32,000 nt of DNA from Geobacter metallireducens GS-15 (GCF_000012925.1 NC_007517.1:2520001-2552000); one strand, 5' to 3'. Counted from the first letter of the stretch, positions 6,597 through 30,723 are shown. Program-made: numbers and translations. The notes: generated by a model not told the origin, from the sequence alone.

Positions 6597-6612
6597 AATC
6601 GACCGTTCGGTT
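6597..6612. promoter_or_regulatory. Operator-like site A (AATCGACCGTTCGGTT; reverse complement AACCGAACGGTCGATT)
   Basis: Lies in the 178-bp intergenic region upstream of the SnoaL-like gene. On the coding strand a possible -10 (TATGAT) sits 8 nt upstream of the site. It shares the 10-nt core CGAACGGTCG with sites B and C, and 9 of 10 positions with site D. Confidence 0.45.
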
Positions 6613-6723
6613 CATTCGTATCATAAAAAAAACCAGTTTTCTATAAATAATTCAGATCCGCTCTCTGATTCCCATAATTACTTTTGGAATACCGACCACC
6701 ACAACCATTGCACAGACAGTTGA

Positions 6724-7674
6724 TCACCCCGGAGAACTCTCTCCTCCTTTCTCTGCCACAACATAGTTCCAGACAGCCTTCGCCATGGAAAAATAGTTTT
6801 TTTCCAACTCAACCTGTCCTCTGGTACTTTGCCGGACGCTGGCAAGGAGGGTTGCAGCACGCGACAGAAAATCCTGCAATCCCCCTCCTCCGTAGAAAAC
6901 ATCGCGACAAAGATCCGAGATCGTAATAATTTGGCTAGTTGCCGAGAGAATGTATGGCATTGCCGGCTCCCACAAGCCGAAATGGGTGGCATATATTCGT
7001 CGGGGAGAAAGCTTGGCAATACGCTCGACCGACTGTACATAGGCGGGGATATCTCCTTTTGGAGGGGAAACCCCTGGCATGGAAACGTACTCGCCAAAAG
7101 GATGTTTCCCTCTAAAAAAAGCGCCAAGGGCGTCGCCAGAGAAGACTCCCCGGGTCGATTCCTCGAAAAACGCCACATGATGGGAGGTGTGACCTGGGGT
7201 ATATAGCACCTTGATACGTCGGACATCGTCAATCTCGATGATTTCACCATCCCCCAATTCCACTACTCGCTCGGCCGGAGCAGGGAGCATGGGGCCAAGC
7301 AGGTCAAAATCTTTTTCCCACACTACCTTGGCGTGGGAAAGGAGTCGCTGCGGATCTAGAATATGCCTCACCCCTAGAGGGTGAATACCGATACGTGCGT
7401 TGGGGAGGTGCCGCAACAACTCACCTGCACCGCCGGCATGGTCCAGGTGAACATGAGTGAGCAGTATCCACCGAATGCTCTCCAAGGGGATACCGGCCTG
7501 TTTGAGACCGGCGAGCCACAAAGGGACAGCAGCTCCGGCACCGGTTTCAACGATACAATTATACCGTTTCCCCCTGACCAGCCAGCCGCCTGCATATCCT
7601 TTCACTCCCCTGTCAAGGGTATCCATGAACATAAAACCAGACGCCGGTTCTTTCAGCACCTTCCCACTCACCAT
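6724..7674 (-). CDS. MBL-fold metallo-hydrolase
   Basis: 316 aa with the HVHLDHAGG (HxHxDH) motif and downstream His/Asp ligand positions. There is a GAGGAG RBS. Confidence 0.85.
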   Translation of the reverse strand: MVSGKVLKEPASGFMFMDTLDRGVKGYAGGWLVRGKRYNCIVETGAGAAVPLWLAGLKQAGIPLESIRWILLTHVHLDHAGGAGELLRHLPNARIGIHPLGVRHILDPQRLLSHAKVVWEKDFDLLGPMLPAPAERVVELGDGEIIEIDDVRRIKVLYTPGHTSHHVAFFEESTRGVFSGDALGAFFRGKHPFGEYVSMPGVSPPKGDIPAYVQSVERIAKLSPRRIYATHFGLWEPAMPYILSATSQIITISDLCRDVFYGGGGLQDFLSRAATLLASVRQSTRGQVELEKNYFSMAKAVWNYVVAEKGGESSPG

Positions 7675-7733
7675 CCTGCTCCTCTAATCCTCCCCCCTAG
7701 GGACGATACTCATGCCGTAAATTCCACTCTGGA

Positions 7734-8168
7734 CTACGTATAAGTCGGGACACGCGGATTCATCTTTTTCAATACCCCGGAAAAAGCCAGCAGGACCTGC
7801 TCGTCGTGGAAAATCTTGCCACGGGCAAAAATCAGTGTTCCGGTCTCATGCACAACCTCTCCGGTCGACTCCAGAAACTGCCCCTCTCCTCCTCCGCCAA
7901 TGAAGTCCACCGTGATCGAGACGGTGACAGCTGTGATCCCCTGAAGGCAGTCCCGCGCAAAGACAAAGAGAGAGTAATCGGCAAAGGTCATCAGCGCCCC
8001 GCCGTGCATCCTTCCTTCGGAGTTCATGGAATGGCGGCCAGTGATAGTGGCACAGCGGTAATGGCCGTTTTCTTCCTTCTGGAAGTAGTAGGGACCGGAC
8101 TGTTCCTCCCAGGGATCGACCCCTTCCCATTTCCGGTATTCTGCAAGACGAGGGTCAGACTGGGTCAT
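7734..8168 (-). CDS. PaaI-family hotdog thioesterase
   Basis: ORF 7734..8237. The motif GRMHGGALMTFADYSLF is typical of PaaI and 4HBT class II thioesterases. The ATG at 8168 (MTQSDPRL) follows AGGAG and avoids overlap with the upstream ADH gene. Confidence 0.75.
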   Translation of the reverse strand: MTQSDPRLAEYRKWEGVDPWEEQSGPYYFQKEENGHYRCATITGRHSMNSEGRMHGGALMTFADYSLFVFARDCLQGITAVTVSITVDFIGGGGEGQFLESTGEVVHETGTLIFARGKIFHDEQVLLAFSGVLKKMNPRVPTYT

Positions 8169-8206
8169 GTAATTGCCGCTCCTGAAGTATTCAATAGATG
8201 CTGGTG

Positions 8207-9229
8207 TCAACGTCCCGGTTCCACCACTACCTTGCAATGCTCCCCGGGGGTTCTGAGAGACTCGAATGTCTTTGGTAAATCGTCTAAAGAAACGGCGGCG
8301 GTAATCATTGGTTTTACCGAGATACGGCCAGATGAGAGCATGTCAACAATGAACTGGAAATCGGACTTGTTGTTACCGATGGAAAATTTGACCGTAATCT
8401 CCTTCAGCATCGCTAGAGCCGGGACAAAGGTATCCGGACGCATGCAAAAGCCGACTACGACAATCTCTGCTCCGAATGCTGCCCTGTCAACGCATTGGGC
8501 GATAAGGCCGGGAATTCCCACACATTCGAAAATCAGTTCCGGCAACTCCCCGGTTATCTCCTGGTACTGGGCACCCACATCAGCTTTTGCATCGACGGCG
8601 TGGGTCGCCCCCATGGCAAGAGCCATCTTCGAGCGTTCAGGATCAAATTCGCTTACGACCACCTGTCTGGCGCCGAAAAATCGGCACCAGAGCGCGACAG
8701 CTAGACCGATAGGGCCCGCACCAGTAACCAGGACACTTTTCCCCGCGACACCGCGAGAAAGACGCACTGCATGAAGACCGATTGCAAGCGGCTCCACCAA
8801 GGCACCTTCCTGCCAACTGACCGAGACCGGCAACCTGACCGCCTCATTGACATGCACACGGGCGTATTCTGCAAAGCCGCCAGCAGTTTGAATTCCAATG
8901 ACTTTTTTCAGCTTGCATTGCCACGGCATACCGGTGAGGCAGGCAAGACAGTGGCCGCAGCCGATGTACGGCAGTGTACAGAGTCGGTCACCTTGCGCCC
9001 AGCCCACGGCTACCTGTGGCCCGACCTCGACAATTTCACCTGCAAACTCGTGTCCCAGGACTGTACCGTCGGCAAGGCGCATTTCCTTGTCCGCCGTTGC
9101 ATGAATATCGGTGCCACAAATTCCGCATGCCTTTACGTTAACGATTACCTCACCATCTAAAGGTATCGGATCATTTAGTGATTCAATGGCAAGAGGCTTT
9201 CCGATTTGGTGAAAGACAGCCGCTCTCAT
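8207..9229 (-). CDS. Zinc-dependent medium-chain alcohol dehydrogenase (MDR family)
   Basis: Contains CGICGTDIH, GHEFAGEIVEVG, a structural-Zn Cys cluster (CGHCLACLTGMPWQC) and the GAGPIG Rossmann motif. The ATG at 9229 (MRAAVFH), preceded by GGAG, is preferred over the GTG at 9238. Confidence 0.9.
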   Translation of the reverse strand: MRAAVFHQIGKPLAIESLNDPIPLDGEVIVNVKACGICGTDIHATADKEMRLADGTVLGHEFAGEIVEVGPQVAVGWAQGDRLCTLPYIGCGHCLACLTGMPWQCKLKKVIGIQTAGGFAEYARVHVNEAVRLPVSVSWQEGALVEPLAIGLHAVRLSRGVAGKSVLVTGAGPIGLAVALWCRFFGARQVVVSEFDPERSKMALAMGATHAVDAKADVGAQYQEITGELPELIFECVGIPGLIAQCVDRAAFGAEIVVVGFCMRPDTFVPALAMLKEITVKFSIGNNKSDFQFIVDMLSSGRISVKPMITAAVSLDDLPKTFESLRTPGEHCKVVVEPGR

Positions 9230-9319
9230 AAGACACACTCCATAAATTTTTCGAGCTTAAACCATGTATATCCTAAACACCTATGCAAAGTTTTAAGATA
9301 AACAGCCTCTTTAGCAGGG

Positions 9320-10120
9320 TTAAACCAGCATCGCACCGCCGTCAACAAGTATGGTTGTGCCAGTGATGTACGCTGCTGAATCCGATGCGAGAAAAAGCAC
9401 TGTTCTGGCTATGTCGTCTGGTTGGCCAAACCCGCCGAGGGGAATGGTGGCACCAATGGATTGCAGTGAATCCTTTTCCTCGCTCTGTTTCAGATTGGAA
9501 CGGACCCCTCCCGTCAGGATCCCCCCCGGAACAACGGCTACAGCGCGTATCTTGTGTGGCGCCAGTTCCAGGGCCGTGCTTCGCGTAAGATTTACAACCC
9601 CTCCTTTTGAGGCTCCATAATGGGCCAGACCCGGAAAGCATGGTTTTAGTGCTGCCATGGAAGATATGTTGACAATCACTCCTCCCGTCCCCTGCCGGAC
9701 CATGATACGACCAGCTTCCTGAGAACAGAGGAAGGCACTTTCAAGATTGATCCTGATTACCTCCCGCCACTGCTCTAGCGACATATCCAAAATTTTGGTG
9801 GCAGGATAAATTCCGGCATTGTTCACCAAGATATCAACACCGCCAAAGCTATCAGCAACGTACGAGAACAAAGATTTTATATCGGCTTCCCGGCCGGCAT
9901 CTGACACCAGACTTTTAACTTTACACTTCATGCTGCTCAATCTATGTTCCGCCTCTTCAATCGCTTCTCGATTGATATCAGTAATCAGAACAGTGGCTCC
10001 CGCCTCCGCCAGCCGTTTGGCAATCGCATAGCCAATTCCAGCTGCCGCGCCAGTAACAACCGCCCTTTTGCCTGAAAGATCAAGAAGACCGGAAACCGGT
10101 TTGTCTTCAATTTTTAACAT
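9320..10120 (-). CDS. Short-chain dehydrogenase/reductase (FabG-like)
   Basis: 266 aa with TGAAAGIG, NNAG and the catalytic YGASK. Confidence 0.9.
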   Translation of the reverse strand: MLKIEDKPVSGLLDLSGKRAVVTGAAAGIGYAIAKRLAEAGATVLITDINREAIEEAEHRLSSMKCKVKSLVSDAGREADIKSLFSYVADSFGGVDILVNNAGIYPATKILDMSLEQWREVIRINLESAFLCSQEAGRIMVRQGTGGVIVNISSMAALKPCFPGLAHYGASKGGVVNLTRSTALELAPHKIRAVAVVPGGILTGGVRSNLKQSEEKDSLQSIGATIPLGGFGQPDDIARTVLFLASDSAAYITGTTILVDGGAMLV

Positions 10121-10161
10121 GGAGCCCCCCCTTTACTGATGGACAGCATTCCTGGAAAGAT

Positions 10162-10650
10162 TTACGGGTAGGTCTTGTCAGGTGGAATATATTGCAGATT
10201 TTCCGGAATCCGGTAAATTTCTGTAATACACGACAGTGCATCGGTAGTATCCAGATATACATAACCCATACCGGCACTGGTGGTCCCTTCAAGCAGAACC
10301 TTAATGTCCTTCTTTTGCATTGATGCCATGGTTTCTTCGAAATTGCGCACACCACAGGCGATGTGATGAATCCCCTCCCCATGCTCACGTAGAAAATCGC
10401 TATAGATGCTCTCGTCGAGTGGCTCGATCAGCTCGAGTTGGACCCCTCCCAAGTCAGTAAAAGCAACTTTCATGGAAAATTCAGCTTTTTCGCCGCGCAT
10501 TTTCATATCGTGCATATTTGATTTGTCCAGGTTATAAAACTGCCAGGGCCCGATTCCAAAGTCGTCCGCGTATGTTCGAACGGCTTTCTCCAAGTCATGC
10601 ACAACAATTCCCACCTGCAGAACTTTTTTAAAAACAGGCTGTTTAGCCAT
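10162..10650 (-). CDS. VOC-family protein (glyoxalase/dioxygenase fold, methylmalonyl-CoA-epimerase-like)
   Basis: 162 aa. The sequence LQVGIVVHDLEKAVRTY...LELIEP...EGIHHIA is typical of VOC/epimerase-like proteins. The substrate is unknown. Confidence 0.7.
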   Translation of the reverse strand: MAKQPVFKKVLQVGIVVHDLEKAVRTYADDFGIGPWQFYNLDKSNMHDMKMRGEKAEFSMKVAFTDLGGVQLELIEPLDESIYSDFLREHGEGIHHIACGVRNFEETMASMQKKDIKVLLEGTTSAGMGYVYLDTTDALSCITEIYRIPENLQYIPPDKTYP

Positions 10651-10689
10651 AATAAGCTCCCTATCAGTTATTACATTTACACCGCCATA

Positions 10690-10705
10690 AATCGACCGTT
10701 CGATG
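10690..10705. promoter_or_regulatory. Operator-like site B (AATCGACCGTTCGATG; reverse complement CATCGAACGGTCGATT)
   Basis: Lies in the 101-bp gap between the tesB stop and the VOC gene start. On the coding strand a possible -10 (TATATT) sits 9 nt upstream. 13 consecutive nt (AATCGACCGTTCG) are identical to site A. Confidence 0.45.
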
Positions 10706-10751
10706 CATGGAAAATATACACCTTTCCCTTACGCGCTTACACATGAAGGAA

Positions 10752-11606
10752 TCAAGCGACTGACAAACGACGCTCTCGTATCAGCCCTTCCTGAGCCACA
10801 GAAGCAATAAGTCTGCCGTCACGGGAAAAAAACTGCCCCTGCGAAAAACCACGAGCATTGGAAGCACTCGGGCTCTCGGCGACATAAAGGACCCACTCAT
10901 CCATCCGGAAATCACGATGGTACCACAGGGCATGGTCAAGGCTCGCCTCAAGGTACTTACCCTTTTGGGAAGGTACATCGTGCGGCAGACCTGCCGTGGT
11001 AATCAACCCATAGTCAGAAGCGTAGGCCAAGGCGGCTTGGTGGAACCCGACACAGTCGGAAAGCCGGTCTGTAGATCGAAGCCATACACTTGAAAAAGGA
11101 AGATACATGCCAGATGCATAGGGATTAACGGGTTTAACGGGACGTATTTCAATAGGGAAATTATTAAAAAAGTTCTGCAGGCGCCTGTTGGGAGCGGCCA
11201 TCTTTCCCAAGGTTTCAACCAAGGTCGGAAGTTCTTCGGGGGCAGGAACCTCGGGCATGGAAGCTTGGTGTTCAAGTCCTTTCTCTTCGATCTGAAACGA
11301 TGCCGTCATGGCAAAGATCGCACGCCCACGCTGGATGGCCACCACTCTGCGGGTCGCAAAACTGTGACCCTCATGAATACGGTCCACCTCATACATGACC
11401 GGAAGCTTATTGTCACCCATGAGGAGAAAATAGGCGTGGAAAGAATGAGCCTTACGTCCAATAACAGTTTTTCCTGCGGCAGCCAAGGCCTGACCGAGAA
11501 CCTGGCCACCATAGATTCGGTTAACGCCAAGATTCTGACTGAGTCCCCGGTAAAGGTTCTCCTCAATCTGTTCGAGTTCAAGGATCTCTGGCAATATTTG
11601 TTTCAT
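10752..11606 (-). CDS. tesB: Acyl-CoA thioesterase II (double hotdog)
   Basis: ORF 10752..11714. The sequence ...LYRGLSQNLGVNRIYGGQVLGQALAAA... and the second hotdog half are typical of TesB. The ATG at 11606 (MKQILPEIL) gives about 284 aa, the usual TesB length. The longer form would overlap the upstream gene. Confidence 0.8.
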   Translation of the reverse strand: MKQILPEILELEQIEENLYRGLSQNLGVNRIYGGQVLGQALAAAGKTVIGRKAHSFHAYFLLMGDNKLPVMYEVDRIHEGHSFATRRVVAIQRGRAIFAMTASFQIEEKGLEHQASMPEVPAPEELPTLVETLGKMAAPNRRLQNFFNNFPIEIRPVKPVNPYASGMYLPFSSVWLRSTDRLSDCVGFHQAALAYASDYGLITTAGLPHDVPSQKGKYLEASLDHALWYHRDFRMDEWVLYVAESPSASNARGFSQGQFFSRDGRLIASVAQEGLIRERRLSVA

Positions 11607-11661
11607 ATCACGCGACACCTTCTTCCGTTTTACAGCACTACCGTCCGGTAATCCAACAACA

Positions 11662-12777
11662 TCAGGCTTTATCTTTTTGACTCCATGCTGCAAACAGTTG
11701 CCTGCCGGTATCAAACGGTTCCTGATAGGTTTGTCGTTCTTTTAGTGAAATCGCCTGGGTAGGACAAGTCGTTACGCAAAGTCCACATCCTATGCATTTC
11801 TCCTCGCTTATGTGTAACGGCCCCATGATTGACGTAACACCCCGGACTGGGCACCTCTTTGCACATAAGCCACAAGCGATACATCGTGCTTGCTCTACTC
11901 CGGCAATAAACCTAGATTTCGCCATGGCGTGGGGTTTGTGGGCAATGGCCTGCAATTGTGTACAGCAGCAGGGACAACAACTGCACATAGAAACACCCAT
12001 CTCTTTTGCATTGCCAACCACGTGAACCAATCCGGCCTTTTCTGTCTGATCCAGGATCTCCAAGACTTCTGTTTGGTCCACTTCCCGTCCGTACCCTCTC
12101 TCACTCATAAAGCGGGCAAGATCTCCAAAATGAAAGCAGACCTCCGTGACTTTACCGCAACTGCTTCCACTAAGCTCTGCTGACTTCCTACAAGGGCAAT
12201 GAATCACCACAGCAAAATCATATCGCTTAATAAGCTCTGCCGCCTTCTCGTAGGGGAAAATCTCCTGACTAGTATCTATCGATTTCCCCACAGGAATGAC
12301 TCGTGTGAATGGAGCTCCCCCTAACATGCTCTTGCCCCATCCACTTTTGTAGTATTCCTGCCAAAGCCTGGCCAACTGCTCAGTTCGCGGGTTCCTTTCT
12401 CCTGTGGCAAACGAGGTTTCCCACAATCCCACAGCCGTTGGTAGAAGGCAGTACAGTTCCTTGGCCACTCCATCCTGGGTAATATTCTTTTTATAGACTA
12501 GTGCCTTATCCGCCATTCGTTCAAGAACAGGACGCAATACATTTACATCCAAGTTGCCACGCTGTGCGAGCTTTGTTATTTCCACATGTTGCTGACTCAG
12601 AATCAAGGCAGCTCCAGCCTCTTCAGGAGTGAATCGGATACGGAGGATTCCAAGAATCGATTCCGCCTCGGGGGCACTCAGGACAAACGTATCCAAGTGT
12701 TTACGTAGTTTCACATAGACGTCATCAAGACTTTCGCTTCCGTCGTCCACAGCACTTAATATCAATTCGCCACCCAC
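11662..12777 (-). CDS. Cys-rich iron-sulfur protein with a C-terminal 2x[4Fe-4S] ferredoxin domain
   Basis: Two CxxCxxCxxxCP motifs are present (CIACGLCAKRCP and CIGCGLCVTTCP). It also has HCPCRKSAELSGSSCGKVTEVCFH and a CSCCPCCC cluster (nt 11962-11985). The start is a GTG at 12777 and is uncertain. Confidence 0.75.
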   Translation of the reverse strand: MGGELILSAVDDGSESLDDVYVKLRKHLDTFVLSAPEAESILGILRIRFTPEEAGAALILSQQHVEITKLAQRGNLDVNVLRPVLERMADKALVYKKNITQDGVAKELYCLLPTAVGLWETSFATGERNPRTEQLARLWQEYYKSGWGKSMLGGAPFTRVIPVGKSIDTSQEIFPYEKAAELIKRYDFAVVIHCPCRKSAELSGSSCGKVTEVCFHFGDLARFMSERGYGREVDQTEVLEILDQTEKAGLVHVVGNAKEMGVSMCSCCPCCCTQLQAIAHKPHAMAKSRFIAGVEQARCIACGLCAKRCPVRGVTSIMGPLHISEEKCIGCGLCVTTCPTQAISLKERQTYQEPFDTGRQLFAAWSQKDKA

Positions 12778-12863
12778 TCATTATCTGCCATGATACCCAA
12801 CTCAAGCCCGGAACCTTCAGTCAAAATGGAAAAAAATTGTTCAGCTACATCTCCAATACTTAA
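12762..12863 (-). pseudogene. Orphaned 3' coding remnant of the TetR gene, separated from its body by the IS
   Basis: Joining 14209 to 12863 across one TTAA copy keeps the TetR frame open for 33 more codons: LSIGDVAEQFFSILTEGSGLELGIMADNEWVAN, then a stop at 12764-12762. That stop overlaps the GTG start of the Fe-S gene by 16 nt, an arrangement typical of translational coupling. Confidence 0.5.
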
Positions 12864-12880
12864 CAGGTTGTTGAAAAACT
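12864..12880 (+). repeat. IS left terminal inverted repeat (CAGGTTGTTGAAAAACT)
   Basis: Matches the reverse complement of 14188-14204 (CAGGCCGTTGAAAAACT) at 15 of 17 positions. Confidence 0.8.
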
Positions 12881-12958
12881 AAACCTTTTTGATTCAATAA
12901 GTTAGCGAACTGTGCTATATTTTTACGCGTAACAATCTGAATTTACAGGAGAAAAGTT

Positions 12959-14035
12959 ATGCGCGGCGCCGAGACAAAAACCGAAGCTCTGTTCTGTTAT
13001 CTCTCCCCTGAGTCGTACGTCCCGAAGGACCACCCCTTGCGGTCGATCAGGGCGATGGTGGATAAGGCCCTTGCAGAGCTCAGCCCGCAATTCGAGGCCA
13101 TGTACTCCCACACCGGCCGGCCCTCGATTCCTCCTGAGCAGTTGCTTAAAGCACTTCTGCTTCAGGCGCTGTACACCATCAGGAGTAACCGTCTGCTGGT
13201 GGAGCAGATCAGCTACAGCATCCTGTTCCGCTGGTTTGTGGGATTGGCCCTGGACGAGAAGGTCTGGGACCACTCCTCGTTTTCCACCAACCTGGAGCGG
13301 TTGATCGATACCGACGTGGCACGGCTGCTCTTGGCAAAAGTAGTTGAGCAGGCCCGAAGGGCAAAGCTGTTGTCCGACGAGCACTTCAGCGTTGACGGCA
13401 CCCTCATCGAGGCGTGGGCTTCTATCAAGAGCTTTCGGCCCAAGGATGGACCAAAGCCTCCAGTGGGTCGTAACACGGAGCGTGATTTCCACGGCGAAAA
13501 GCTCAAAAACGACACCCATGCCTCCACCACCGATCCGGATGCGCGGATTGCCAGGAGAAGCTCGGGCAAAGAGGCGAAGCTCAGTTACCACGGGCACGCT
13601 CTCATGGAGAACCGCAACGGGATCATCGTCGATGCCAGAATCACCCACGCAACCGGTACCGCTGAGCGGGATACCGCAGTCGAGATGATCGCAGACGTCG
13701 CCGGTAACAAGCGGATCACCATGGGCGGCGACAAGGGCTACGACACCAAAGAGTGCGTCAAAGATCTGCGAGCACTCAAGGTAACCCCTCACATTGCTCA
13801 GAACACCGCTAACCGCCGCTCAGCCATCGATGGCAGGACTACCCGCCACGAAGGCTACAAAACCAGCCTGAGGATTCGCAAGCGGATCGAAGAGGCCTTC
13901 GGCTGGCTCAAGACTGTCGGCAATCTCCGCAAGACCCGGCATCGGGGAATAGCGAAAGTCGACTGGTACTTCACCATGGCCATTGCGGCATACAATCTGG
14001 TCCGGCTGCGCAATCTCGGGACGAAAACGGCATAA
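12959..14035 (+). CDS. IS5-family DDE transposase
   Basis: 358 aa with an AGGAGAA RBS. The N-terminus is like the IS5-type transposase N-domain (...HTGRPSIPPEQLLKALLLQALYTIRSNRLLVEQISYSILFRWFVGL...). The C-terminal DDE region includes DKGYD and ...RIEEAFGWLK... Confidence 0.9.
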   Translation: MRGAETKTEALFCYLSPESYVPKDHPLRSIRAMVDKALAELSPQFEAMYSHTGRPSIPPEQLLKALLLQALYTIRSNRLLVEQISYSILFRWFVGLALDEKVWDHSSFSTNLERLIDTDVARLLLAKVVEQARRAKLLSDEHFSVDGTLIEAWASIKSFRPKDGPKPPVGRNTERDFHGEKLKNDTHASTTDPDARIARRSSGKEAKLSYHGHALMENRNGIIVDARITHATGTAERDTAVEMIADVAGNKRITMGGDKGYDTKECVKDLRALKVTPHIAQNTANRRSAIDGRTTRHEGYKTSLRIRKRIEEAFGWLKTVGNLRKTRHRGIAKVDWYFTMAIAAYNLVRLRNLGTKTA

Positions 14036-14187
14036 TCAGGGGAATAATGCGACTCTTGGTGGCAAAGCCCGCCCGAAAAGGCCAAATCAAGGTAAAAAGC
14101 AAAGTTTCAAAGAACGAATAGGGCGAGATCAATGCAACTATCGGCCTAAAATGATCTCCTTGAAGGGGATTGCCCTGGAAATGAAGG

Positions 14188-14204
14188 AGTTTTTCAACGG
14201 CCTG
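14188..14204 (-). repeat. IS right terminal inverted repeat
   Basis: AGTTTTTCAACGGCCTG on the plus strand. It pairs with 12864-12880. Confidence 0.8.
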
Positions 14205-14790
14205 TTAAAATATCATTTTTCTTGTACCAAACGCACGCATGATTACACATCCCCATGATTGCCTTGGCTGTAACATGAGGATCAAGGTCTTTGAACAAGT
14301 TTGTTTCTTCTGACTGTATCTGTTGAATTATTCTAACCACCTGTTGTCCATAAAGCCTTTGTTGTTGTTGATATACAGTCCTGCTTTTACCAGTAAGAAA
14401 TTTACCATCTTTGATATTAATTGACAGAACATCCTTCCTTTCTGCCACCATTTTCATATGAAAATGGACAAACTTATTCAATTTTGTAACTCCATCAAGA
14501 CTTTTGTTATTGAGTACTGGTTTGAATTCATCAATATACGCGGGTAGAAAGTTTTCCATTACAGCTAGAAGGATACCTTCCTTACTCTTGAAATAGTGTA
14601 TCACTGTGCTCTTTGAAATCCCTACCATATCCGCAAGAATCCCTATTGACATACCTTTATAACCAACTTCGCTCATAACCATAATCGCAGTTTTTATTAA
14701 TTTATCATAGGTACTGCACTCAATTTTGCCATTATCCCTTTCACTCTCGTACGTGAGGAAATCAACTGAACAATGTCTCTTTGCAGACAT
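14194..14790 (-). CDS. TetR/AcrR-family transcriptional regulator whose last codons and stop are supplied by the IS (C-terminally truncated allele)
   Basis: The N-terminal HTH is KLIKTAIMVMSEVGYKGMSIGILADMVGISKSTVIHYFKSKEGIL. The ORF ends ...WYKKNDILTGR. Codons TGR and the stop lie inside the IS right inverted repeat (14194-14204). Confidence 0.8.
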   Translation of the reverse strand: MSAKRHCSVDFLTYESERDNGKIECSTYDKLIKTAIMVMSEVGYKGMSIGILADMVGISKSTVIHYFKSKEGILLAVMENFLPAYIDEFKPVLNNKSLDGVTKLNKFVHFHMKMVAERKDVLSINIKDGKFLTGKSRTVYQQQQRLYGQQVVRIIQQIQSEETNLFKDLDPHVTAKAIMGMCNHACVWYKKNDILTGR

Positions 14791-14870
14791 TTATTACCTC
14801 CGTGATAGAAGGGAGTCTTGGACAACCCGGCAGGTTATAATATTTTTCGTAAGCATCAGTAAACCAAGAA

Positions 14871-14895: not shown

Positions 14896-15765
14896 TTATT
14901 GCGTATAATAGCCTACTGCAATAAGGTAATTGTCTACTTTACGAAATATAGTGTTCTTAACTTCTATTTTCCCCGTTAATAAATTCCTCCAACGATATGT
15001 CAATGTTCCTTTTCCCTTTTTTTTGGCAATGCCAATCATCTCCTTGACAATTGATTTACCATCAGGGTTTCTCAACTCCATTGCATCTGTGTTGACGAGT
15101 CGCGGTGTAGCACCATGAGCGCGGAAAATATTATCTTTCAAATCTACAACAAATACGTAAAGATCATCCTGTATAAACTTGCTATTAAGATCATTAAAAG
15201 CATTACACGCAGAGACAGGGTCTTTCTTCAGCGTTTCAACAGCCTGCGCAAGGAGAGCATAGGCCTGTACATCACTTGCATGCGGAATGTAGAACCCAAC
15301 AGCAATTATTCGATCCCCTATTCTTTGGAAATAAGTATGTTTGTGTTCAGGCTTCCCATCCAAACGATTGAGCCATTTGTATTCAACCGCACCGGCATTT
15401 TGACTCTTTGCCGTATCTATCATCTCACGAAAAAATAGTTTACCTTCAGCATCTCGCATGTTTGATACGTCCCGACCAATCAAAACTGATGACGATCCAC
15501 CGCTTGCGAGAAATTTCCCATTTGTTCCGATCACATAAACATAGAGATTACCCTTGACGAATTGACCCTGCATGGAGAAGTCTGCAAATGAACGATCCTT
15601 TTTTTTGTTATAGAGCTCGACAGCTCGGGCAAGCATTTCCTTAGCGTTTTTGGAATCATAGCTTTCTTCAGGCTTGGCAGTCGAAGGCTTTATTTGTTCA
15701 GCAGCAAACAACAAATGTGCTGACAACAATGTAATGAGAGCTGTAACGAGGACTACTTTTCTCAT
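14896..15765 (-). CDS. Secreted tandem Cache-like (two sCache-type repeats) protein with no output domain
   Basis: ORF 14896..15813. The ATG at 15765 follows AAGGAGA. The signal peptide is MRKVVLVTALITLLSAHLLFAAEQ. Two homologous halves each contain ...LYV(Y/F)V(I/V)...G... and end in ...IAVGFY and ...IAVGYY. No TM or signalling domain follows. Confidence 0.7.
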   Translation of the reverse strand: MRKVVLVTALITLLSAHLLFAAEQIKPSTAKPEESYDSKNAKEMLARAVELYNKKKDRSFADFSMQGQFVKGNLYVYVIGTNGKFLASGGSSSVLIGRDVSNMRDAEGKLFFREMIDTAKSQNAGAVEYKWLNRLDGKPEHKHTYFQRIGDRIIAVGFYIPHASDVQAYALLAQAVETLKKDPVSACNAFNDLNSKFIQDDLYVFVVDLKDNIFRAHGATPRLVNTDAMELRNPDGKSIVKEMIGIAKKKGKGTLTYRWRNLLTGKIEVKNTIFRKVDNYLIAVGYYTQ

Positions 15766-16009
15766 AATTGTCTCCTTTTCAACTAAATTCGTCACTCTCA
15801 ATGCAAGCTCCACATTTGTATTTGGCCCTATCGACTATCCATTATCCTACAGTCAAACCGCTCTTGTGAGATGTTTCTACTGTTGCCAAAACAGCATGTC
15901 TCCTAAGATAGTAGTCGTATCTTGCATAATCGAAAGTGAGGATTATTCATTCAAAAGCTTTATTGAACTCTGGCGCACAACAAACTATAATCTACCGCTC
16001 AATCACCAA

Positions 16010-21910: not shown

Positions 21911-23245
21911 TTACTTCATATTCTCTTTAAGAATGAACGAAGTCATCGAATCTTGAGTCAGCTTACCGGGGGGGAGGAAGCGTACTGGCTTGTACCCGAA
22001 CTCAGGTACTTGTGTGTAAAAGATTCCAGTCACGAGATTATGGAATTGCTGTACATCTACGGCTGGAGCTTTGACATCATAGTTCGGCATGAGGGGAACA
22101 ATTTCAGACATAAAGAGTTTGCCCTTCGAGTCATAATCATCCATTACGCCGCCAAACCATGCGTCCTCGTCCAAGTAAATCATGCGTTTGCTGTAGATAT
22201 GGCGTTTACCCGGCTTCAGCCTCGCCTCGACCACCCACACACGGTGCAATTCCCAACGCATCACATCCGGGTTGGCAAACCCAGCCCTAAGTTGCTGTTC
22301 TTTTTTTGTCAAACAAAGTTTGTAGGTATTATAAGGGATATACATTTCCTTCTTTCCGACAAGTTTGAAGTCAAACCGGTCCATCAACCCACTGAACATG
22401 TCAGCGTCGTCATACGTATACACACCCGCTACCTGGGAAATCGGCGTATCGGCAGCCGCATCGGGTGACAGTCTGACACGGCGCGAAGCCGGCTGGTACG
22501 AGTATGCACGCCGTCCGATTTTCGAATCCACATAGTCAGTAATTATACTTGTCTGTCCATTGATACGAGCAGGGCCGATATACTCCCCACGATACATCCA
22601 GTATTGGTCAGGATTTTTCTTGCTCGGATTGTAGATACCATACTCTCTGTACATGAAAGTCGACTGGGTTTGCACTACTTCACCCGACGGCTTTACAAAG
22701 TAACCACCGACTTTGTAAATCATTGCAGGGAGCGCAGGTCGGGCAAAGTGGTTCCACATAACCTCGTAGCCGTTCTTGGGCACAGGAAAGGGGATACCAT
22801 GGCCACATCCTTTAGAGGTATCTAGAGATATTCCTCCATCGGTAGTTCTACATCTTGTCATATTCTTTTCTGTGTTCTCTTCAAAACTTTGGGTGTACGC
22901 TGCCGAACGTCGGGTTTGATATACATCCATCCGGAAGTTAGGATATTTTTTCAGCAAAGCCTTTTGCCCATCAGACAATTTATCAGCGTATTTATCCATG
23001 TTTTTTCCCGTTATCGAGAACAGGACCTTATCGCTGGCAAATGGATCCGGCAAATTCCCCATCCCCTTTACAAACCCTGCTGGCCGGCCGGTATAACCAC
23101 CTGTCCACGCAGGAATGGTGCCGTCCTTGTTACCAGCCTTTTCCGCTCCAGCTGGAGTAAGATGGGAAGGTAGGCCTGCCTGGGCCCCCCCTACATACGA
23201 TGTAGACACCACTAAGGCACCGATGATGATTTTTGTGAATTTCAT
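21911..23245 (-). CDS. DUF1329-family periplasmic protein (LolA-like fold family)
   Basis: Has a signal peptide followed by the characteristic N-terminus ...LTPAGAEKAGNKDGTIPAWTGGY... It is 444 aa with an AAGGAGA RBS and sits directly downstream of the DUF1302-like barrel gene. Confidence 0.8.
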   Translation of the reverse strand: MKFTKIIIGALVVSTSYVGGAQAGLPSHLTPAGAEKAGNKDGTIPAWTGGYTGRPAGFVKGMGNLPDPFASDKVLFSITGKNMDKYADKLSDGQKALLKKYPNFRMDVYQTRRSAAYTQSFEENTEKNMTRCRTTDGGISLDTSKGCGHGIPFPVPKNGYEVMWNHFARPALPAMIYKVGGYFVKPSGEVVQTQSTFMYREYGIYNPSKKNPDQYWMYRGEYIGPARINGQTSIITDYVDSKIGRRAYSYQPASRRVRLSPDAAADTPISQVAGVYTYDDADMFSGLMDRFDFKLVGKKEMYIPYNTYKLCLTKKEQQLRAGFANPDVMRWELHRVWVVEARLKPGKRHIYSKRMIYLDEDAWFGGVMDDYDSKGKLFMSEIVPLMPNYDVKAPAVDVQQFHNLVTGIFYTQVPEFGYKPVRFLPPGKLTQDSMTSFILKENMK

Positions 23246-23296
23246 AGTATCTCCTTTGCTTGGTGCAAGACTGTTAATACCGCCAAATTGATCTAC

Positions 23297-24931: not shown

Positions 24932-25096
24932 TAGACACCTCCTGCATTGTAAGGGTTATCCCATCTTCCCGAAATTTCCTTTCCGTCGATCTTTAAATTC
25001 CTCGTAGGTGACCTGTCTCTTCTGTATCGACAAAACATGTAAACCACTTTTTAATCCTCCTTTTCACTAGTCTAACCGGCCACCCAAAATAAAATT

Positions 25097-25112
25097 GTTC
25101 GAACGGTCGTTA
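25097..25112. promoter_or_regulatory. Operator-like site C (GTTCGAACGGTCGTTA)
   Basis: Lies 166 nt upstream of the DUF1302 gene start, inside a 674-bp AT-rich intergenic region. On the coding strand a possible -10 (TACTAT) sits directly upstream. It carries the same 10-nt core as sites A and B, in the opposite orientation. Confidence 0.4.
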
Positions 25113-25605
25113 TAGTACAACTGAACTATACACCGAATACAAGGTCAAGAAAAAAATCTGTAAAAAATACTTACGTTCTATTTAAAAACAAAAGGCATTA
25201 ATTTTACAACTTGTCGTATTTACATAGCTTTTAATGCCGCGCAAAGCAAATAACCAATAATCCCGGCCGCACATCAAAAAAATGGGAAACTTTGTTCTAT
25301 TGTTTACCGTGAAGCGAGAAAAAGACACAACTGTATAAATTAAAACTACAGCTGATATCTATCCGGATAGATGATCTCAACGATTACGCGAAAAAATTAT
25401 GGAAAGAAGTTCGTTAAGGAAGGACTACAAAGATTACCAATTTGCATGCAGTTGTCTCAGCATTCAAAATGAGGAGGTTGACGCTTTTTACCGTAAAGCT
25501 CCTTATAGACTGCCTTACAAAAATTCAGCAACTGTTTGTTCGGAAAGTGCACGCGGCAATTGCCGCTCTAGCCGCAAACATGCGGCAATCATTGCCTCAG
25601 GAGGT

Positions 25606-26388
25606 TCAAGGCATCGGCTTATCTTGCAAATAGACCCCACAGGACCAAGCACCGTCCACTGCCAGTTCCGCCCCCGAAATATATGATGAGTCATCGCTTG
25701 CCAGAAAAAGACTGGCGCGAGCAATTTCCTCTGATTGTCCAACACGGCTCAAGGCGATTCCAGGAAATTTGATTTTCAGTTCTGCATTAACCTCTTCGAA
25801 GGACTTACCATCCGGGTTATTCATCGGCGTTACGATCCACCCAGGATGTAGAGAGTTAACACGGATGCCGAAAGGGCCCACCTCCATGGCAACACACTTG
25901 GTCAGACCACGCACTCCCCACTTACTTGCCGAATAGGCACCCGATCCGGAAGATCCGCGCAACCCGTTCACAGACGAAACATTAATAATAGAACCACGTC
26001 GGTTCTTTTTCATCGTGGGGATAACTGCCTTCATCCCCAAATATGGGCCAATCAGGTTAATATCAAGAATCCGACGAAAAGCTTCGCTCCGGGTTTCATC
26101 AATCGGCGAAGAAAAGAAAACGGCCGCATTGTTCACAAGTATGTCGATGCAGCCATACCTATCAATAATGCCTTCCACCAATTGCTCCCATCCCTGCTCG
26201 TCAGTCACATCAAGATGCTGATACATTGTGTTGCGGCCAAGTCTCTTTGCCAAGGCCTCGCCCTCAACATCAAGAACATCAACAATCACCACACTGGCGC
26301 CTTCTTGGACAAAAACCTCTGCAGTCGTTTGGCCCATACCACGGGCACCACCAGTCACAATGGCCACTTTGCCGTCAAGTTTTCCCAT
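25606..26388 (-). CDS. Short-chain dehydrogenase/reductase (3alpha/20beta-hydroxysteroid-dehydrogenase-like subgroup)
   Basis: 260 aa with GKVAIVTGGARGMG, NNAA and the catalytic YSASK. There is an AGGAGAG RBS. The subgroup assignment is only by resemblance. Confidence 0.85.
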   Translation of the reverse strand: MGKLDGKVAIVTGGARGMGQTTAEVFVQEGASVVIVDVLDVEGEALAKRLGRNTMYQHLDVTDEQGWEQLVEGIIDRYGCIDILVNNAAVFFSSPIDETRSEAFRRILDINLIGPYLGMKAVIPTMKKNRRGSIINVSSVNGLRGSSGSGAYSASKWGVRGLTKCVAMEVGPFGIRVNSLHPGWIVTPMNNPDGKSFEEVNAELKIKFPGIALSRVGQSEEIARASLFLASDDSSYISGAELAVDGAWSCGVYLQDKPMP

Positions 26389-26457
26389 TGATACTCTCCT
26401 TACTGTTTCTTAGTGACACAAGTCCCTAAAACCGCGGATAAAAATTTTCTTTCTACT

Positions 26458-27276
26458 TTATTGTGGTTTTTCTGTAATGACTCCATGCTCAGTATCATCG
26501 AAAAGTTTCTCAATTTCAGCGCCCGTCTTTACACCATCTACGACCCGCCCATCGGATAAAACGGTAGTGGGCGTCATGCGAATTCTCAGTTCTTTGAACA
26601 GAGTTTTCCCTTCTTCGGCATAGTCCCTGCCGCAGGTTATATCTGCAATCGCAGTACCATTGAAACTTTCTTCCAGAAGTCGCAGCCCTTTATCCATTCC
26701 GTCCTGTGCCGCGCACAAAATGGAGTTGGTTACAGCAGAAGCTCGGGGATGAATATCAAGAGGAGTAAGTATGATACGGACCCCTAACTGCGGGTCCTCT
26801 TTGGTCAGTGCAACAAGCTCCCGATGGAACTTGGCGCAAAACGGACATTCCGGGTCGGTGAAGACATAAATATTTCTGCTGCCAGTTGCGTTACCGAGGA
26901 CGAGAGCATTGTCAAGCGGGAGTTTTGATGGGTCAATACGCCGCACCCGATTAAGGGCGGTTGCGGTTACGTCTTTCTTGCTGCCAGTATCAAGTATTCT
27001 GCCTGCAATGAGGAATTTCTTCGAAAAATCAAGATATATGATGCCAGTGCTATCATTATGTCTTATTATTATTTCAAATAATCCCCGCACGGGAGAAGGC
27101 CCGACCGATTCTACCGTAGTAGCAGGGTCAACATTCTTAACCAAGGCTACGACCTCTTCCTTCTTGATAGTGTGGCAGGCTATGCAGTTTCCACTACATC
27201 CTTCCGTTCCCGTTCCGAAACCATATGCCGTCGATACAAACGCAAACGGCAGGAGAATTCTCATCAACCATTTCAT
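26458..27276 (-). CDS. Periplasmic DsbC/DsbG-like thiol:disulfide interchange protein with an extra N-terminal CXXCH motif
   Basis: ORF 26458..27312. The ATG at 27276 follows a G-rich RBS. The signal peptide is MKWLMRILLPFAFVSTAYG. The thioredoxin-fold active site is FTDPECPFCAKFH. CSGNCIACH follows directly after the signal peptide (CIACH at nt 27172-27186). Confidence 0.75.
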   Translation of the reverse strand: MKWLMRILLPFAFVSTAYGFGTGTEGCSGNCIACHTIKKEEVVALVKNVDPATTVESVGPSPVRGLFEIIIRHNDSTGIIYLDFSKKFLIAGRILDTGSKKDVTATALNRVRRIDPSKLPLDNALVLGNATGSRNIYVFTDPECPFCAKFHRELVALTKEDPQLGVRIILTPLDIHPRASAVTNSILCAAQDGMDKGLRLLEESFNGTAIADITCGRDYAEEGKTLFKELRIRMTPTTVLSDGRVVDGVKTGAEIEKLFDDTEHGVITEKPQ

Positions 27277-27380
27277 ATTGCCCCCCCAGAAGAACCGGAT
27301 CATTTGGTGCACGTTTGCCAGGAGTGATCAATTTGGCAGGATGTTGCATTTCTTTGGCTGAGAAATTAAACCCCTCTCAA

Positions 27381-28706
27381 CTAGGAGAAATCCGCCCCGA
27401 TTTTATCATCAAGCTTACTTTCAACAGTTACCACAGCATTCGATACGGGAGGCTTGGCAAATAATACTAGAATAGCTCCCAGAAGAGCGATAGTCGCCCC
27501 TCCGTATAAGGCCAATACATAGCTGCCGAAACGATCGTAGACGATCCCGGCTAAAAGTGGTGCAATAGCACTGCCCCCATTTGTAAGGGGAAGGGCCACT
27601 CCCATGAGTGGGGCAAAAGATTTGACGCCATAATAGTTGGCCAAAATTGTCGGCATGGCAACGAAGCTTGCACCAAAACCGACCCCAACGCAGCAGGCGT
27701 AAAGGTAAACCACGGCAGTATTAGTGGCATTTGCAAGCGCAACTGCTCCCAGCAGGGTCGAAAACACAGCCGCACTTAAGATAAACCGCGGCTCTATACG
27801 ATCACCTAAAATACCGGCAAACAACTTGCCGCCTACACTGCAAAGCAGTAACAAACCGGCGGACAGGGCAGCAAACTGCGGAGAATGTCCAAGGCTGCGC
27901 AAATGAATCACACCATGAGCGACACATGTATTAAAGACGGCAAGAAAACTGAAAGAGGCAATAATGATCAACCAGAATATTTTCGTTTTTAATACTTCCC
28001 TGACAGGCCAAAATTCGCTCGATTGATATATCCGCGAGGAGCGGACCTGCGCATTGCGGGCAGTGTTTTCAGAGCTTTTTCCCGGCGGCACCCCATCAGG
28101 AAACTGTCCCATTGAAGCCGGAGTGTTTCTGACCCCCCCAGCAGCTATAGTTGCAGCTGCCAAACCGGTGGCCACAACTACCAACCAGCCGTTTTTCCAG
28201 TTACCGTTGGAAGCGGCAATGATTTTATTCAAAAGTGGAGCTGCAATGAACGAGCCGAAGCCGGCTGCCGAAAGCGCAATAGACATGGCAAGAGCTCTTC
28301 GCCTGACAAACCAATTGGTCACACCGGTCTGTATGGGGATAACCGTACCCAAACCAACGCCTGTACCAATAACAACCCCAAAAGTCAGAACATACTGCCA
28401 TCCCTTCGATACCGTCAGCGCCATAAGCAACGCCCCAAAAGCCACGATCAGCCCGCCTGAGGCAAGGGTAAAACGAATACCTTTTTTGTTGACGCAGTAC
28501 GCCACCAGTGGCCCAGAAAGCGCCGAGGAGAGGACAAAAAGGGAAAATCCAAGTCCAACGATACTTTTAGTTATTCCAATACTTTCAGCCATATAGCTGT
28601 TAATTACACTTGCGCCAACGTAGGGAAAGGTAGCATTCAGAAAATAAATTCCAAAAAACATCCCGACCAGCGTCCATCCGTAAAACCTCGTGGCTTGCTG
28701 TGCCAT
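27381..28706 (-). CDS. MFS transporter (oxalate/formate-antiporter-like, probable carboxylate carrier)
   Basis: 441 aa with about 12 hydrophobic helices and a central hydrophilic loop (...GQFPDGVPPGKSSENTARNAQVRSS...). There is an AGGAGG RBS. Confidence 0.8.
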   Translation of the reverse strand: MAQQATRFYGWTLVGMFFGIYFLNATFPYVGASVINSYMAESIGITKSIVGLGFSLFVLSSALSGPLVAYCVNKKGIRFTLASGGLIVAFGALLMALTVSKGWQYVLTFGVVIGTGVGLGTVIPIQTGVTNWFVRRRALAMSIALSAAGFGSFIAAPLLNKIIAASNGNWKNGWLVVVATGLAAATIAAGGVRNTPASMGQFPDGVPPGKSSENTARNAQVRSSRIYQSSEFWPVREVLKTKIFWLIIIASFSFLAVFNTCVAHGVIHLRSLGHSPQFAALSAGLLLLCSVGGKLFAGILGDRIEPRFILSAAVFSTLLGAVALANATNTAVVYLYACCVGVGFGASFVAMPTILANYYGVKSFAPLMGVALPLTNGGSAIAPLLAGIVYDRFGSYVLALYGGATIALLGAILVLFAKPPVSNAVVTVESKLDDKIGADFS

Positions 28707-28738
28707 TGCGCCTCCTGCTTAAAGCTGATATAAGACTT

Positions 28739-30398
28739 TCAATTTGTCGAAGGCAAATTGAATTCCTTCACACCAATTTCACGTAATTTGAATTTTTGAA
28801 CTTTTCCAACAGCGGTTCTTGGAATCTGAGACTCTGTAACAAACTTTAGGTATCTGGGTATTTTATATTTACCGATTTTACCTTCGCAGAAGGCTATAAT
28901 GTCGTTTGCGTCTGCCTGTATTCCTTCTTTGAGAATAACAAAGACACCGACCAGTTCCCCCATGCGCTTATCGGGCAGCCCCACTGCAAAACAACACGCA
29001 ACGGCGGGATGTTGTGTGATTATCTGTTCAACTTCGAGTGGATCGATATTCAAGCCACCGGAAATAATGAGCTCTTTCAGCCTCCCTGTTAACTTCAAAT
29101 AGCCATTTTCATCCATCTCACCAAGATCTCCAGTCAAAAACCAACCATCCTTGTCAAACGACTTTGCATATTGATCCGGATTGTTATAATAGCCGGGGGT
29201 AACATTCCATCCCCGAGTCAATATCTCACCCTGCTGTCCGCAAGGCAGTTCCAACCGGCTCTTTATATCTACAATTTTGATATCACACCCTTCGTTGAAT
29301 TTTTTGCCTACCGAGTTGGCAATAAGTTCCGGCGTATCGCCAGCTTCGGAAAAGGTTGTCAACCCGGTATTTTCTGTCATTCCGTAGGCAGCAAACAGGG
29401 ACATGCCAAATTTTTCCGTGATTTCTCTGACCCAAGGTGGGCGTATACGGCGCCCCCCCAATATCCCCTACCCTCATCGACATGAATTTTGCAGGACTGA
29501 AATCGCCATCGTTCATGAGCATGGTAAACATTGCAGGGGTTCCAGCAAACATCGTAATATTGTGTTTTTGAACTCCTTCAATTATTTCAGCGGTATTAAA
29601 TGTTTCAAAAATGACAATCCTCGTGCCAAAGAGCTCACCTAACTTTATAGTGGTCAGGAGCCCGAAATTTGTGAAGAAAGGGGTGCAGCCAAGGATTGCA
29701 TCATTTTCAGCCAATTGAAACACTTTGCCCATTTTAGCGAAGACCCGATTGCTCTGATGGTGTGTGGTCAACACCCCCTTAGGTACTCCGGTTGTTCCCG
29801 AGGTAAATAATACTGTGCTCACATCATGTGGAGTAACGGCTGTCATGGCTGCGTTAAGGTCCTTGTCGGAAATGCCCTGCCCCGACTCAAGAAAATCCGA
29901 AAAGCGGAACATTCCCCCATGATTATTCGGACTCAAACAAATCACGGTTTGCAAATAAGGCAACTCTGGCAAAGCGATCTTTCCCGGGGCAAACCCACTC
30001 AATCCTGGGCAAACCGTATACAGCAACTCGATAAAGTCGATGCCAACCGCCGTGTCCATTATGAATAGCGCATTAACTTCCCCAGAACTAAGAATCATTT
30101 CCAGTTCATGGGTCTTGTAGCGGGTGTTGATAGGCACCAGCCAAGCACCGATCCATGCAACAGCATTTCTGACAACAATCCACTCCGGAATGTTCGTCAT
30201 CATAATGCCTACCCGATCACCTTTTTTAATACCCGCCCTCAATAACGCTTTTGCCAACTTGGATGAGAGCTCGCGCAATTCCCCCCATGACAGAATTCGA
30301 TCCTTAAAAATGATCGCCGTTTTGTCACGATCAACCTTGCTGACCGTCTCATGTAGAAGTTGTGCTTGGTTCAAATTGCAATAATCCATGATATCCAT
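28739..30398 (-). pseudogene. AMP-dependent acyl-CoA synthetase/ligase disrupted by a +1 frameshift (or affected by an assembly error)
   Basis: The N-terminal part is in ORF 29283..30527 (FTSGTTGVPKGV ... SMRVGDIGGAP). The C-terminal part is in ORF 28739..29461 (...PPWVREITEKFGMSLFAAYGMTENTG ... TGDLGEMDENGYLKLTGRLKE ... PRTAVGKVQKFKL). The two frames overlap at 29283-29461, and the switch must occur within about 29431-29461. The likely start is the ATG at 30398 (MDIMDY), preceded by GAGGA. Confidence 0.8.
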
Positions 30399-30703
30399 AG
30401 GACATATCCTCTGCGATGGGGCTCGTTGTAATTGACCGGAAAAACTGCCATCGCCGTGAGATTTGCACCAACGTGCAAATCTCACGGCTACGTTCGTATT
30501 ACTGCTGGGAAACAAGGTACGATACATTATAAAATGTAGTTTTGTATAATTACACTTTCAGTCCATATCTATATTATTCATTCTAATGAACCAGCTAACT
30601 TCAAGTCCACAGAAACCTCAGCATGTCATCAATTACCGCTATTAGGCGCTCTCGCTCCACCATGCAACCATGCTCAGTTACTGGCAAAACAGACCAACCC
30701 CAC

Positions 30704-30723
30704 GCAACCGAACGTTCGGTTGC
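30704..30723. promoter_or_regulatory. Operator-like site D: perfect 20-bp palindrome GCAACCGAACGTTCGGTTGC
   Basis: The sequence is self-complementary over all 20 nt. It begins 6 nt downstream of the -10 hexamer of the promoter below, and its core is related to sites A-C. Confidence 0.6.

Follow-up and report, generated by a model that had tools for sequence, protein, structure and literature searches.

The DNA analyzed here, referred to below as the window, is a 32,000-nucleotide stretch of Geobacter metallireducens GS-15 (NC_007517 2,520,001-2,552,000; Gmet_2227 to Gmet_2254), which forms part of the final, GC-poor third of the 300-kb "aromatics island," as located with the locus tags and coordinates supplied with PMC2700814 and PMC1924859. 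According to Pfam annotation, which was used for the gene content of the window and of the related loci alike, it carries four minus-strand gene strings, designated units A to D, each of which follows an intergenic gap with one copy of a 16-bp palindrome. The first-pass annotation had proposed these copies as operators of a TetR-type repressor. The positions and sequences that it gave for the four 16-mers are correct, as are its gene strings and the placement of every copy in a gap upstream of one of them. The candidate operators are as follows.

6597-6612, minus strand: operator A, AACCGAACGGTCGATT; center 59 nt upstream of the SnoaL-like gene Gmet_2232
10690-10705, minus strand: operator B, CATCGAACGGTCGATT; center 47 nt upstream of the VOC/glyoxalase gene Gmet_2237
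25097-25112, plus strand: operator C, GTTCGAACGGTCGTTA; 173 nt upstream of the DUF1302 gene Gmet_2248
30706-30721: operator D core, AACCGAACGTTCGGTT, a perfect palindrome; 186 nt upstream of the coenzyme A (CoA)-ligase gene Gmet_2252
30704-30723, no strand assigned: operator D outer palindrome, a 20-nt perfect palindrome, GCAACCGAACGTTCGGTTGC, that encloses the core

The gene strings that follow them have the following composition.

Unit A, minus strand: SnoaL-like (Gmet_2232), short-chain dehydrogenase/reductase (SDR), DapB-like, AMP/CoA ligase, thioesterase, molybdenum (Mo)-oxidoreductase
Unit B, minus strand: VOC (Gmet_2237), SDR, zinc-dependent alcohol dehydrogenase (Zn-ADH), 4HBT thioesterase, metallo-β-lactamase (MBL)-fold enzyme
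Unit C, minus strand: DUF1302 (Gmet_2248), DUF1329, AMP/CoA ligase, BNR, RND/MMPL
Unit D, minus strand: AMP/CoA ligase (Gmet_2252), MFS, DsbC, SDR

The minus-strand open reading frame (ORF) of the molybdopterin-type oxidoreductase in unit A continues past the left end of the window. After the unit C string come a small ORF, a periplasmic Cache protein, a TetR-family regulator (Gmet_2241), an insertion sequence (IS), a Fer4 protein, and a thioesterase II, with the genes on the minus strand. Unit C may continue through the Cache, TetR, Fer4, and thioesterase genes.

Across all sites, the consensus is WAYCRAMCGKTCGRTW, a 16-bp palindrome with an invariant central CG and arms of the form WAYCRA/TYGRTW, the length of which falls within the range of TetR-type operators (~14 to 20 bp). 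The common 10-nt core described for sites A, B, and C, CGAACGGTCG, is present in exactly 3 copies in the window, compared to ~0.05 copies expected from the base composition. Allowing one mismatch adds only site D, which is indeed the fully symmetric version of the motif. The apparent asymmetry of the core as first described (CGAAC/GGTCG) arises because positions 7 and 10 each take two bases.

A position weight matrix (PWM) built from the four sites gives these sites 16 to 26 bits and every other position in the window less than 10 bits. With a PWM derived from the sites of other genomes only, sites A to D still rank 1 to 4 in the window (13.4 to 18.1 bits), followed by a position with 8.8 bits; in Markov-simulated 32-kb sequences, the mean number of positions with at least 10 bits is 0.65. 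Site C is the weakest match of the four. All four sites are intergenic, although intergenic sequence accounts for only 4,015 nt (12.5%) of the window, and the PWM scan of the 32 kb finds no further copies inside genes. When intergenic and coding sequence are compared across the 32 kb, as the first-pass annotation had suggested for the whole genome, no position other than these four intergenic sites matches strongly; the further copies that it allowed for, including copies within genes, are not found there.

Two of the sites are accompanied by σ70-like promoters called in a promoter scan.

6620-6647, minus strand: promoter of unit A, TTTATA, 16 nt, TATGAT
30730-30759, minus strand: promoter of unit D, TTGACA, 18 nt, TAATAT; 10/12 matches

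Operator A begins 7 nt past the TATGAT -10 hexamer and therefore lies over the predicted transcription start, and the operator D 16-mer begins 8 nt past TAATAT. At site B, a -10 hexamer, TATATT, is seen 7 nt away by eye only, and the -35 element is poor. The earlier statement that every copy follows a -10 hexamer within about 10 nt thus holds by scan for A and D and by eye for B; at C, no promoter is called. Aligned according to the orientation of the genes behind them, ~20 sites have an arrangement in common, namely, TTGACA, ~17 nt, a -10 hexamer, and then the operator, directly or within 8 nt. Overlap with core promoter elements is found for A, D, and most of the other sites examined, in which the operator abuts the -10 box of a near-canonical promoter.

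The GS-15 sequence that was scanned comprises the 32-kb window and ~15 kb outside it (loci L016 and L097; loci are designated here by L and a number), and three more operators are found in the latter. The fifth operator, TACCGAACGGTCGATA (L097, 1787-1802), lies ~100 nt past the right end of the window, where it would be numbered 32098-32113, and is the best scoring of all sites. It stands upstream of the genes for rubrerythrin (Gmet_2254) and a thioesterase, behind a TTGACA-17-TAATAA promoter; 129 nt separate it from the ATG of the rubrerythrin gene, which is at window position 31984. An older annotation of rubrerythrin reaches 2,552,194, which would put this promoter and operator inside the ORF; the shorter start has a GGAGG ribosome-binding site, and the ORF that follows it covers the whole Pfam domain. 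The two other operators (L016, 7726-7741 and 10806-10821) are located beside an intact paralogue of Gmet_2241. One of them precedes an HpaB-like gene (4-hydroxyphenylacetate hydroxylase/4-hydroxybutyryl-CoA dehydratase family). The other is at the start of an amidohydrolase gene, the called start of which may be too far upstream. The arms of the sites differ between the two locations, with AAYCGA in the window and TACCRA beside the paralogue and in other genomes. The single-repressor regulon, which had been proposed for the window, therefore extends beyond it, to the rubrerythrin operon and the neighborhood of the paralogue.

The TetR alignment was used to scan collections of genomes and metagenomes, which yielded 14 loci with close homologues of the regulator (33 to 60% identity) in addition to the locus of the GS-15 paralogue; ~80 loci with distant TetRs, obtained in the same scans, served as the control set. 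The palindrome is found again beside orthologues of Gmet_2241 in other genomes of the Desulfuromonadales. Matches with at least 12 bits number 11 in the 88 kb of close-TetR loci versus 6 in the 984 kb of distant-TetR loci, an approximately 20-fold difference. The control match that was examined (L076/L086) is located inside an ORF and was rejected as a real site, being a chance match. In six loci (L006, L007, L017, L020, L025, and L101), the palindrome stands ahead of the TetR gene itself, at a distance of 60 to 190 nt; elsewhere, it precedes thiolase, HpaB-like, and divergent KASIII-like genes. Locus L099 is syntenic with the window and encodes TetR, HypA, CobW, Fer4, ligase, thioesterase II, VOC, SDR, methyltransferase, ADH, 4HBT, and MBL proteins. 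Here, TACCGAACGGTCGATA is located 51 nt upstream of the orthologous VOC gene, the counterpart of window site B at 47 nt, which provides the phylogenetic footprint that had been suggested as a check.

Some sites have additional elements next to them. A half-site-like TTGGTA/TTGGTG is found 3 nt after the operator at window site A (6588-6596, minus strand) and at its L099 counterpart (5477-5482), and L005 has a second full, weaker palindrome, GACCGACCGATTGGTC (5780-5795), 2 nt after the first one. By analogy, these elements may reflect tandem or dimer-of-dimers binding. The latter mode is known from QacR-like TetRs, and PfmR (see below) binds its site with two dimers, as QacR does. In a Desulfuromonadaceae metagenome-assembled genome, the TetR orthologue is preceded by a different palindrome, AATTACCCTGGTAATT (L004, 774-789), and not by the standard operator.

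The operator matches two experimentally defined ones. The TetR-family repressor PfmR (TTHB023) of Thermus thermophilus HB8 binds the consensus operator TACCGACCGNTNGGTN with nanomolar affinity (PMC7022988), and the genomic sites in the pfmR promoter, TACCGACCGGTCGGTG and TACCGACCGGTTGGTT, represent essentially the same operator as that of Geobacter. When applied to 12.5 kb around pfmR, the Desulfuromonadales PWM recognizes exactly two sites, both in the pfmR promoter (22 to 23 bits; the next position has 4.4 bits), in agreement with the two PfmR sites reported upstream of this gene (PMC7022988). The proteins are related as well. The PfmR structure (PDB 3VPR; PMC10636190) is the second-best PDB match of the Geobacter TetR profile (E value of 1e-19, full length) and a top Foldseek match (TM score of 0.81 to 0.85). 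PfmR also has the best E value in a TetR search of 7.3 Gb of plasmids, and a direct BLASTP comparison with the Geobacter TetR gives an E value of 6e-16 with 22% identity. In both systems, the sites overlap core promoter elements, and the regulons are similar in content (acyl-CoA ligase, PaaI-type thioesterase, SDRs, and thiolase). However, PfmR comes from an aerobic thermophile of a different phylum. Compared to its regulon, the Geobacter one adds the DUF1302/DUF1329/BNR/RND envelope module, the Mo-oxidoreductase, an MFS transporter, and DsbC, and the repressor in the window, unlike PfmR, is cut by the IS and has no operator immediately before its own gene.

The second system is PaaR (BCAL0210), the TetR-type repressor of phenylacetate catabolism in Burkholderia cenocepacia, the operator of which, ACCGACCGGTCGGT(T), has been defined by mutagenesis and electrophoretic mobility shift assays and is released by PaaR in the presence of phenylacetyl-CoA (PMC2770484, PMC9493321). 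The PaaR operator ACCGACCGGTCGGTT, or ACCAACCGGTCGGTT at the paaH promoter, constitutes the core of several Desulfuromonadales sites, e.g., TACCAACCGGTCGGTA, and the sites in L017, L025, and L101 have the Burkholderia inverted repeat, unchanged, as their core. Thus, the Geobacter-type sites match an experimentally defined sequence, the PfmR/PaaR-type operator ACCGAMCGKTCGGT. As with PaaR, the operator is found within the core promoters of several separate operons, but the Burkholderia site is positioned between the -35 and -10 elements, whereas the Geobacter-type site is at or after the -10 element. Neither paaABCDE nor PaaZ is recognized by Pfam in the window or the related loci, which contain only PaaK-like ligases, PaaI-like thioesterases, and thiolases; lacking paaABCDE, the gene set does not constitute a phenylacetate regulon as understood for Burkholderia. 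With the ~20-fold enrichment, the six sites upstream of TetR genes, and the identity to the PfmR and PaaR operators, the proposal of a TetR-type operator is now tied to a particular TetR clade.

Other relatives share the fold of the Geobacter TetR and its TetR_C_24 ligand domain. These include Bacillus FadR (YsiA), Myxococcus AibR, and Mycobacterium KstR2, which follow a similar logic, repressing CoA-dependent catabolic operons until an acyl-CoA relieves the repression. In Foldseek searches, the other structural neighbors with a known ligand are mostly acyl-CoA binders of this kind (FadR, AibR, KstR2), with the exception of DarR, which binds c-di-AMP/cAMP. The operators of FadR, AibR, and KstR2, as far as is known, differ in sequence from the one described here. 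Assignment to the Bacillus-type FadR equivalog (NCBIfam NF053878) was rejected, with scores of 52.3 and 54.5 bits versus a cutoff of 200. The Thermus PaaR consensus, CNAACGNNCGTTNG, was likewise rejected as the same operator: its first ten positions fit CGAACGGTCG, with the dyad center shifted by 2 nt. The Corynebacterium PaaR motif, probably ACTNACCGNNCGNNCGGTNAGT, is not used as evidence here.

The regulator in the window, Gmet_2241, which is 99% identical to a GS-15 protein, had been named in the first-pass annotation as the natural candidate and taken to be no longer intact. The latter is confirmed by the following arrangement.

12762-12863, minus strand: displaced 3' end of the TetR gene, encoding LSIGDVAEQFFSILTEG...; corresponds to helix α9
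12860-12863 and 14205-14208: TTAA target duplication of the IS
12864-14204, plus strand: IS of 1,341 bp, with 16-nt terminal inverted repeats, CAGGTTGTTGAAAAAC and the reverse complement of CAGGCCGTTGAAAAAC
12959-14035, plus strand: transposase Gmet_2240, with the DUF772 and DDE_Tnp_1 domains
14194-14790, minus strand: TetR-family regulator Gmet_2241, truncated, with the TetR_N and TetR_C_24 domains (Pfam)

The IS replaces residues 196 to 227, the last 32 of the protein, with TGR and a stop, giving a product of 198 residues. When the IS and one TTAA copy are removed in silico, the TetR ORF joins 12863-12762 in frame and encodes a 227-residue protein. The restored C terminus, LSIGDVAEQFFSILTEG, aligns without gaps with the conserved C termini of 19 homologues. 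The AlphaFold model of P0002, a 72%-identical orthologue (predicted local distance difference test score of 88.5), contains nine helices, with the IS junction located just before α9; Gmet_2241 of GS-15 therefore lacks the whole of this predicted helix. In nine-helix TetRs, the dimer interface is formed by α8 and α9. The same is stated for MbdR (PMC4424350). Having lost this part of the interface, the truncated Gmet_2241 is probably defective, which would leave the paralogue as the working repressor. An identical copy of the IS sits 150 genes away, and the aromatics-island paper describes Gmet_2240 as an IS 100% identical to Gmet_2091, with no mention of the TetR (PMC1924859). Neither the motif nor the disruption of the TetR gene by the IS is mentioned in that paper or in the genome paper and its supplements (PMC2700814). 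No paper citing the locus tags of the regulators was found in the literature searched.

The paralogue, P0007, which is encoded outside the window and is probably Gmet_2216, is intact and 66% identical to Gmet_2241. Its recognition helix is the same, SKSTVIHYF, which is invariant throughout the clade in the homologue alignment. Thus, the TetR clade assigned to the sites in the first-pass annotation holds, but for the individual protein, the paralogue is at least as strong a candidate for the role of working repressor in GS-15, because Gmet_2241 is not intact. The best candidate for an operator of Gmet_2241 itself, GATTGAGCGGTAGATT (15989-16004, upstream of the Cache gene), scores 6 to 10 bits and was rejected as sub-threshold with the improved matrix.

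Taken at a probability of roughly four in five, and judging from sequence comparisons, sites A to D represent operators of an acyl-CoA-type TetR repressor similar to PfmR and PaaR and form part of a larger set in GS-15. The cognate regulators would be Gmet_2241 and its paralogue, with the paralogue as the working repressor in this strain; their DNA-binding activity may be expected by analogy with characterized homologues. The 16-bp WAYCRAMCGKTCGRTW would be bound by one TetR dimer or perhaps by two. Since the palindrome lies on or just downstream of the -10 element, over the start region of σ70-type promoters, a bound repressor would block initiation, at at least five transcription units. The repressed genes would be those for CoA ligases, hot-dog thioesterases, SDR and Zn-dependent dehydrogenases, the MBL-fold enzyme, the Mo-oxidoreductase, and the DUF1302/DUF1329/BNR/RND envelope module. 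The ligases of the regulon itself might supply a CoA thioester that binds the TetR_C_24 ligand domain, and release of the repressor would be expected to follow.

Several observations weigh against this interpretation. Operator C has weak outer arms, and the promoter scan called no promoter at site B or site C. Although Gmet_2241 lies within the cluster, the 105-nt gap upstream of its own gene contains no operator of the kind that directly precedes the TetR gene in six orthologue loci, so that its autoregulation would depend on transcription reading through from site C. In the scan, no site is seen on the orthologue contig L098 or on several short contigs. The island units are missing from the benzoate/acetate microarray supplement of PMC1924859. 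PfmR is only 22 to 27% identical to the Geobacter TetR, and the suggestion that the two share their DNA specificity comes from the motif and not from contact residues.

The strongest alternative, with a chance somewhat short of even, retains the operator and changes its occupant: the truncated Gmet_2241 would be dead, and either the intact paralogue alone would act on the sites or these would be unoccupied and the island constitutively derepressed. The loss of the whole predicted α9 from a protein whose relatives dimerize through α8 and α9 is consistent with this view, as are the identical recognition helix of the paralogue and the sites beside its gene. However, the truncated protein may yet be stable and able to dimerize, and the AAYCGA arms of the window sites, as opposed to the TACCRA arms beside the paralogue and in other genomes, could mean that the paralogue has specific preferences.

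A regulator of another family as the protein that binds the palindrome, with the association with TetR as a by-product of gene clustering, is improbable. Although the TetR is the sole transcription factor found by Pfam, that scan covered only the window, which gives this idea some room; on the other hand, the site precedes the TetR gene itself in six independent loci, and in both Thermus and Burkholderia, this sequence has been proven to serve as the operator of a TetR.

Still less credit can be given to the view that the copies have no regulatory role and either arose by chance or were left behind by a duplicated promoter, a repetitive extragenic palindromic (REP) element, or a mobile repeat resembling miniature inverted-repeat transposable elements (MITEs). 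G. metallireducens does contain many multicopy intergenic sequences (PMC2700814), but the motif is not among the multicopy families in the supplements of that paper. The likeness among the copies stops at the palindrome borders, which argues against duplicated promoters and mobile repeats; the excess of exact copies over expectation and the conservation of the motif at orthologous promoters across genomes also argue against this view. Finally, a role of the palindromes in RNA, as hairpins or terminators between consecutive operons of the same strand, is hardly tenable: A, B, and D do lie between same-strand genes and D is a 20-nt perfect palindrome, but the terminator scan called no terminator-like structure with a T-run at any of the four sites, the central CG leaves no loop, and sites in other genomes are found in divergent promoter regions, abutting -10 boxes.

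A few neighboring genes deserve comment. The first gene of unit D, Gmet_2252 (28739-30527, minus strand), is split into two overlapping frames, of which ORF 29283-30527 corresponds to residues 17 to 281 and ORF 28739-29461 to residues 343 to 508 of the intact ligase Gmet_2246. By its sequence, the split is a frameshift, reflecting either a pseudogene or a sequencing error; the gene table of PMC1924859 has no entry under the tag Gmet_2252. Gmet_2242 (14896-15813, minus strand), a 305-residue protein encoded between the RND module and the TetR gene, comprises nothing but a signal peptide and a Cache domain, lacks any transmitter or methyl-accepting chemotaxis protein module, and may be a periplasmic ligand-binding protein.

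In relatives, nickel/metal-cofactor genes directly follow the TetR gene: HypA and CobW in L098 (4013-5075) and L099 (908-2030) and LarE/LarB/LarC-like genes (NAD_synthase-like, AIRC, and Ni_insertion) in L101 (7073-9478). There, they stand ahead of Fer4, ligase, or MBL genes. The G. metallireducens cluster lacks them; their presence in the relatives hints that the pathway includes a metal-dependent enzyme.

The operator as such is not new, being of the same type as those of PfmR and PaaR, and no new mechanism is implied. What is added here is the assignment of the operator family, the additional sites, the paralogous regulator, and the IS-disrupted repressor. The resulting grouping would bring ~30 kb of poorly annotated aromatics-island genes together as one coregulated system with a CoA thioester as the likely class of signal, which offers a handle on the substrate of the island pathway. 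A wider view, tentative and on balance doubtful, is that these sites mark an uncharacterized anaerobic CoA-dependent catabolic regulon of Desulfuromonadales, which in G. metallireducens would span at least 7 promoters and ~35 genes, including the envelope module and the Mo-oxidoreductase, that the GS-15 island is deregulated or decaying, and that the TetR-DNA recognition code is unusually conserved. In this view, with one of the two paralogous repressors of GS-15 knocked out by the IS and the first ligase of unit D frameshifted, the island would be deregulated or in decay. A near-identical operator in Deinococcota, Betaproteobacteria, and Desulfuromonadales, at ~25% protein identity, would represent an unusually conserved recognition code for a TetR. 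Apart from this wider view, the IS-disrupted copy of the local repressor in the laboratory type strain could affect studies of island expression, and the PfmR/PaaR operator is extended to a third phylum, which makes an experimentally grounded motif available for the prediction of regulons in anaerobes.

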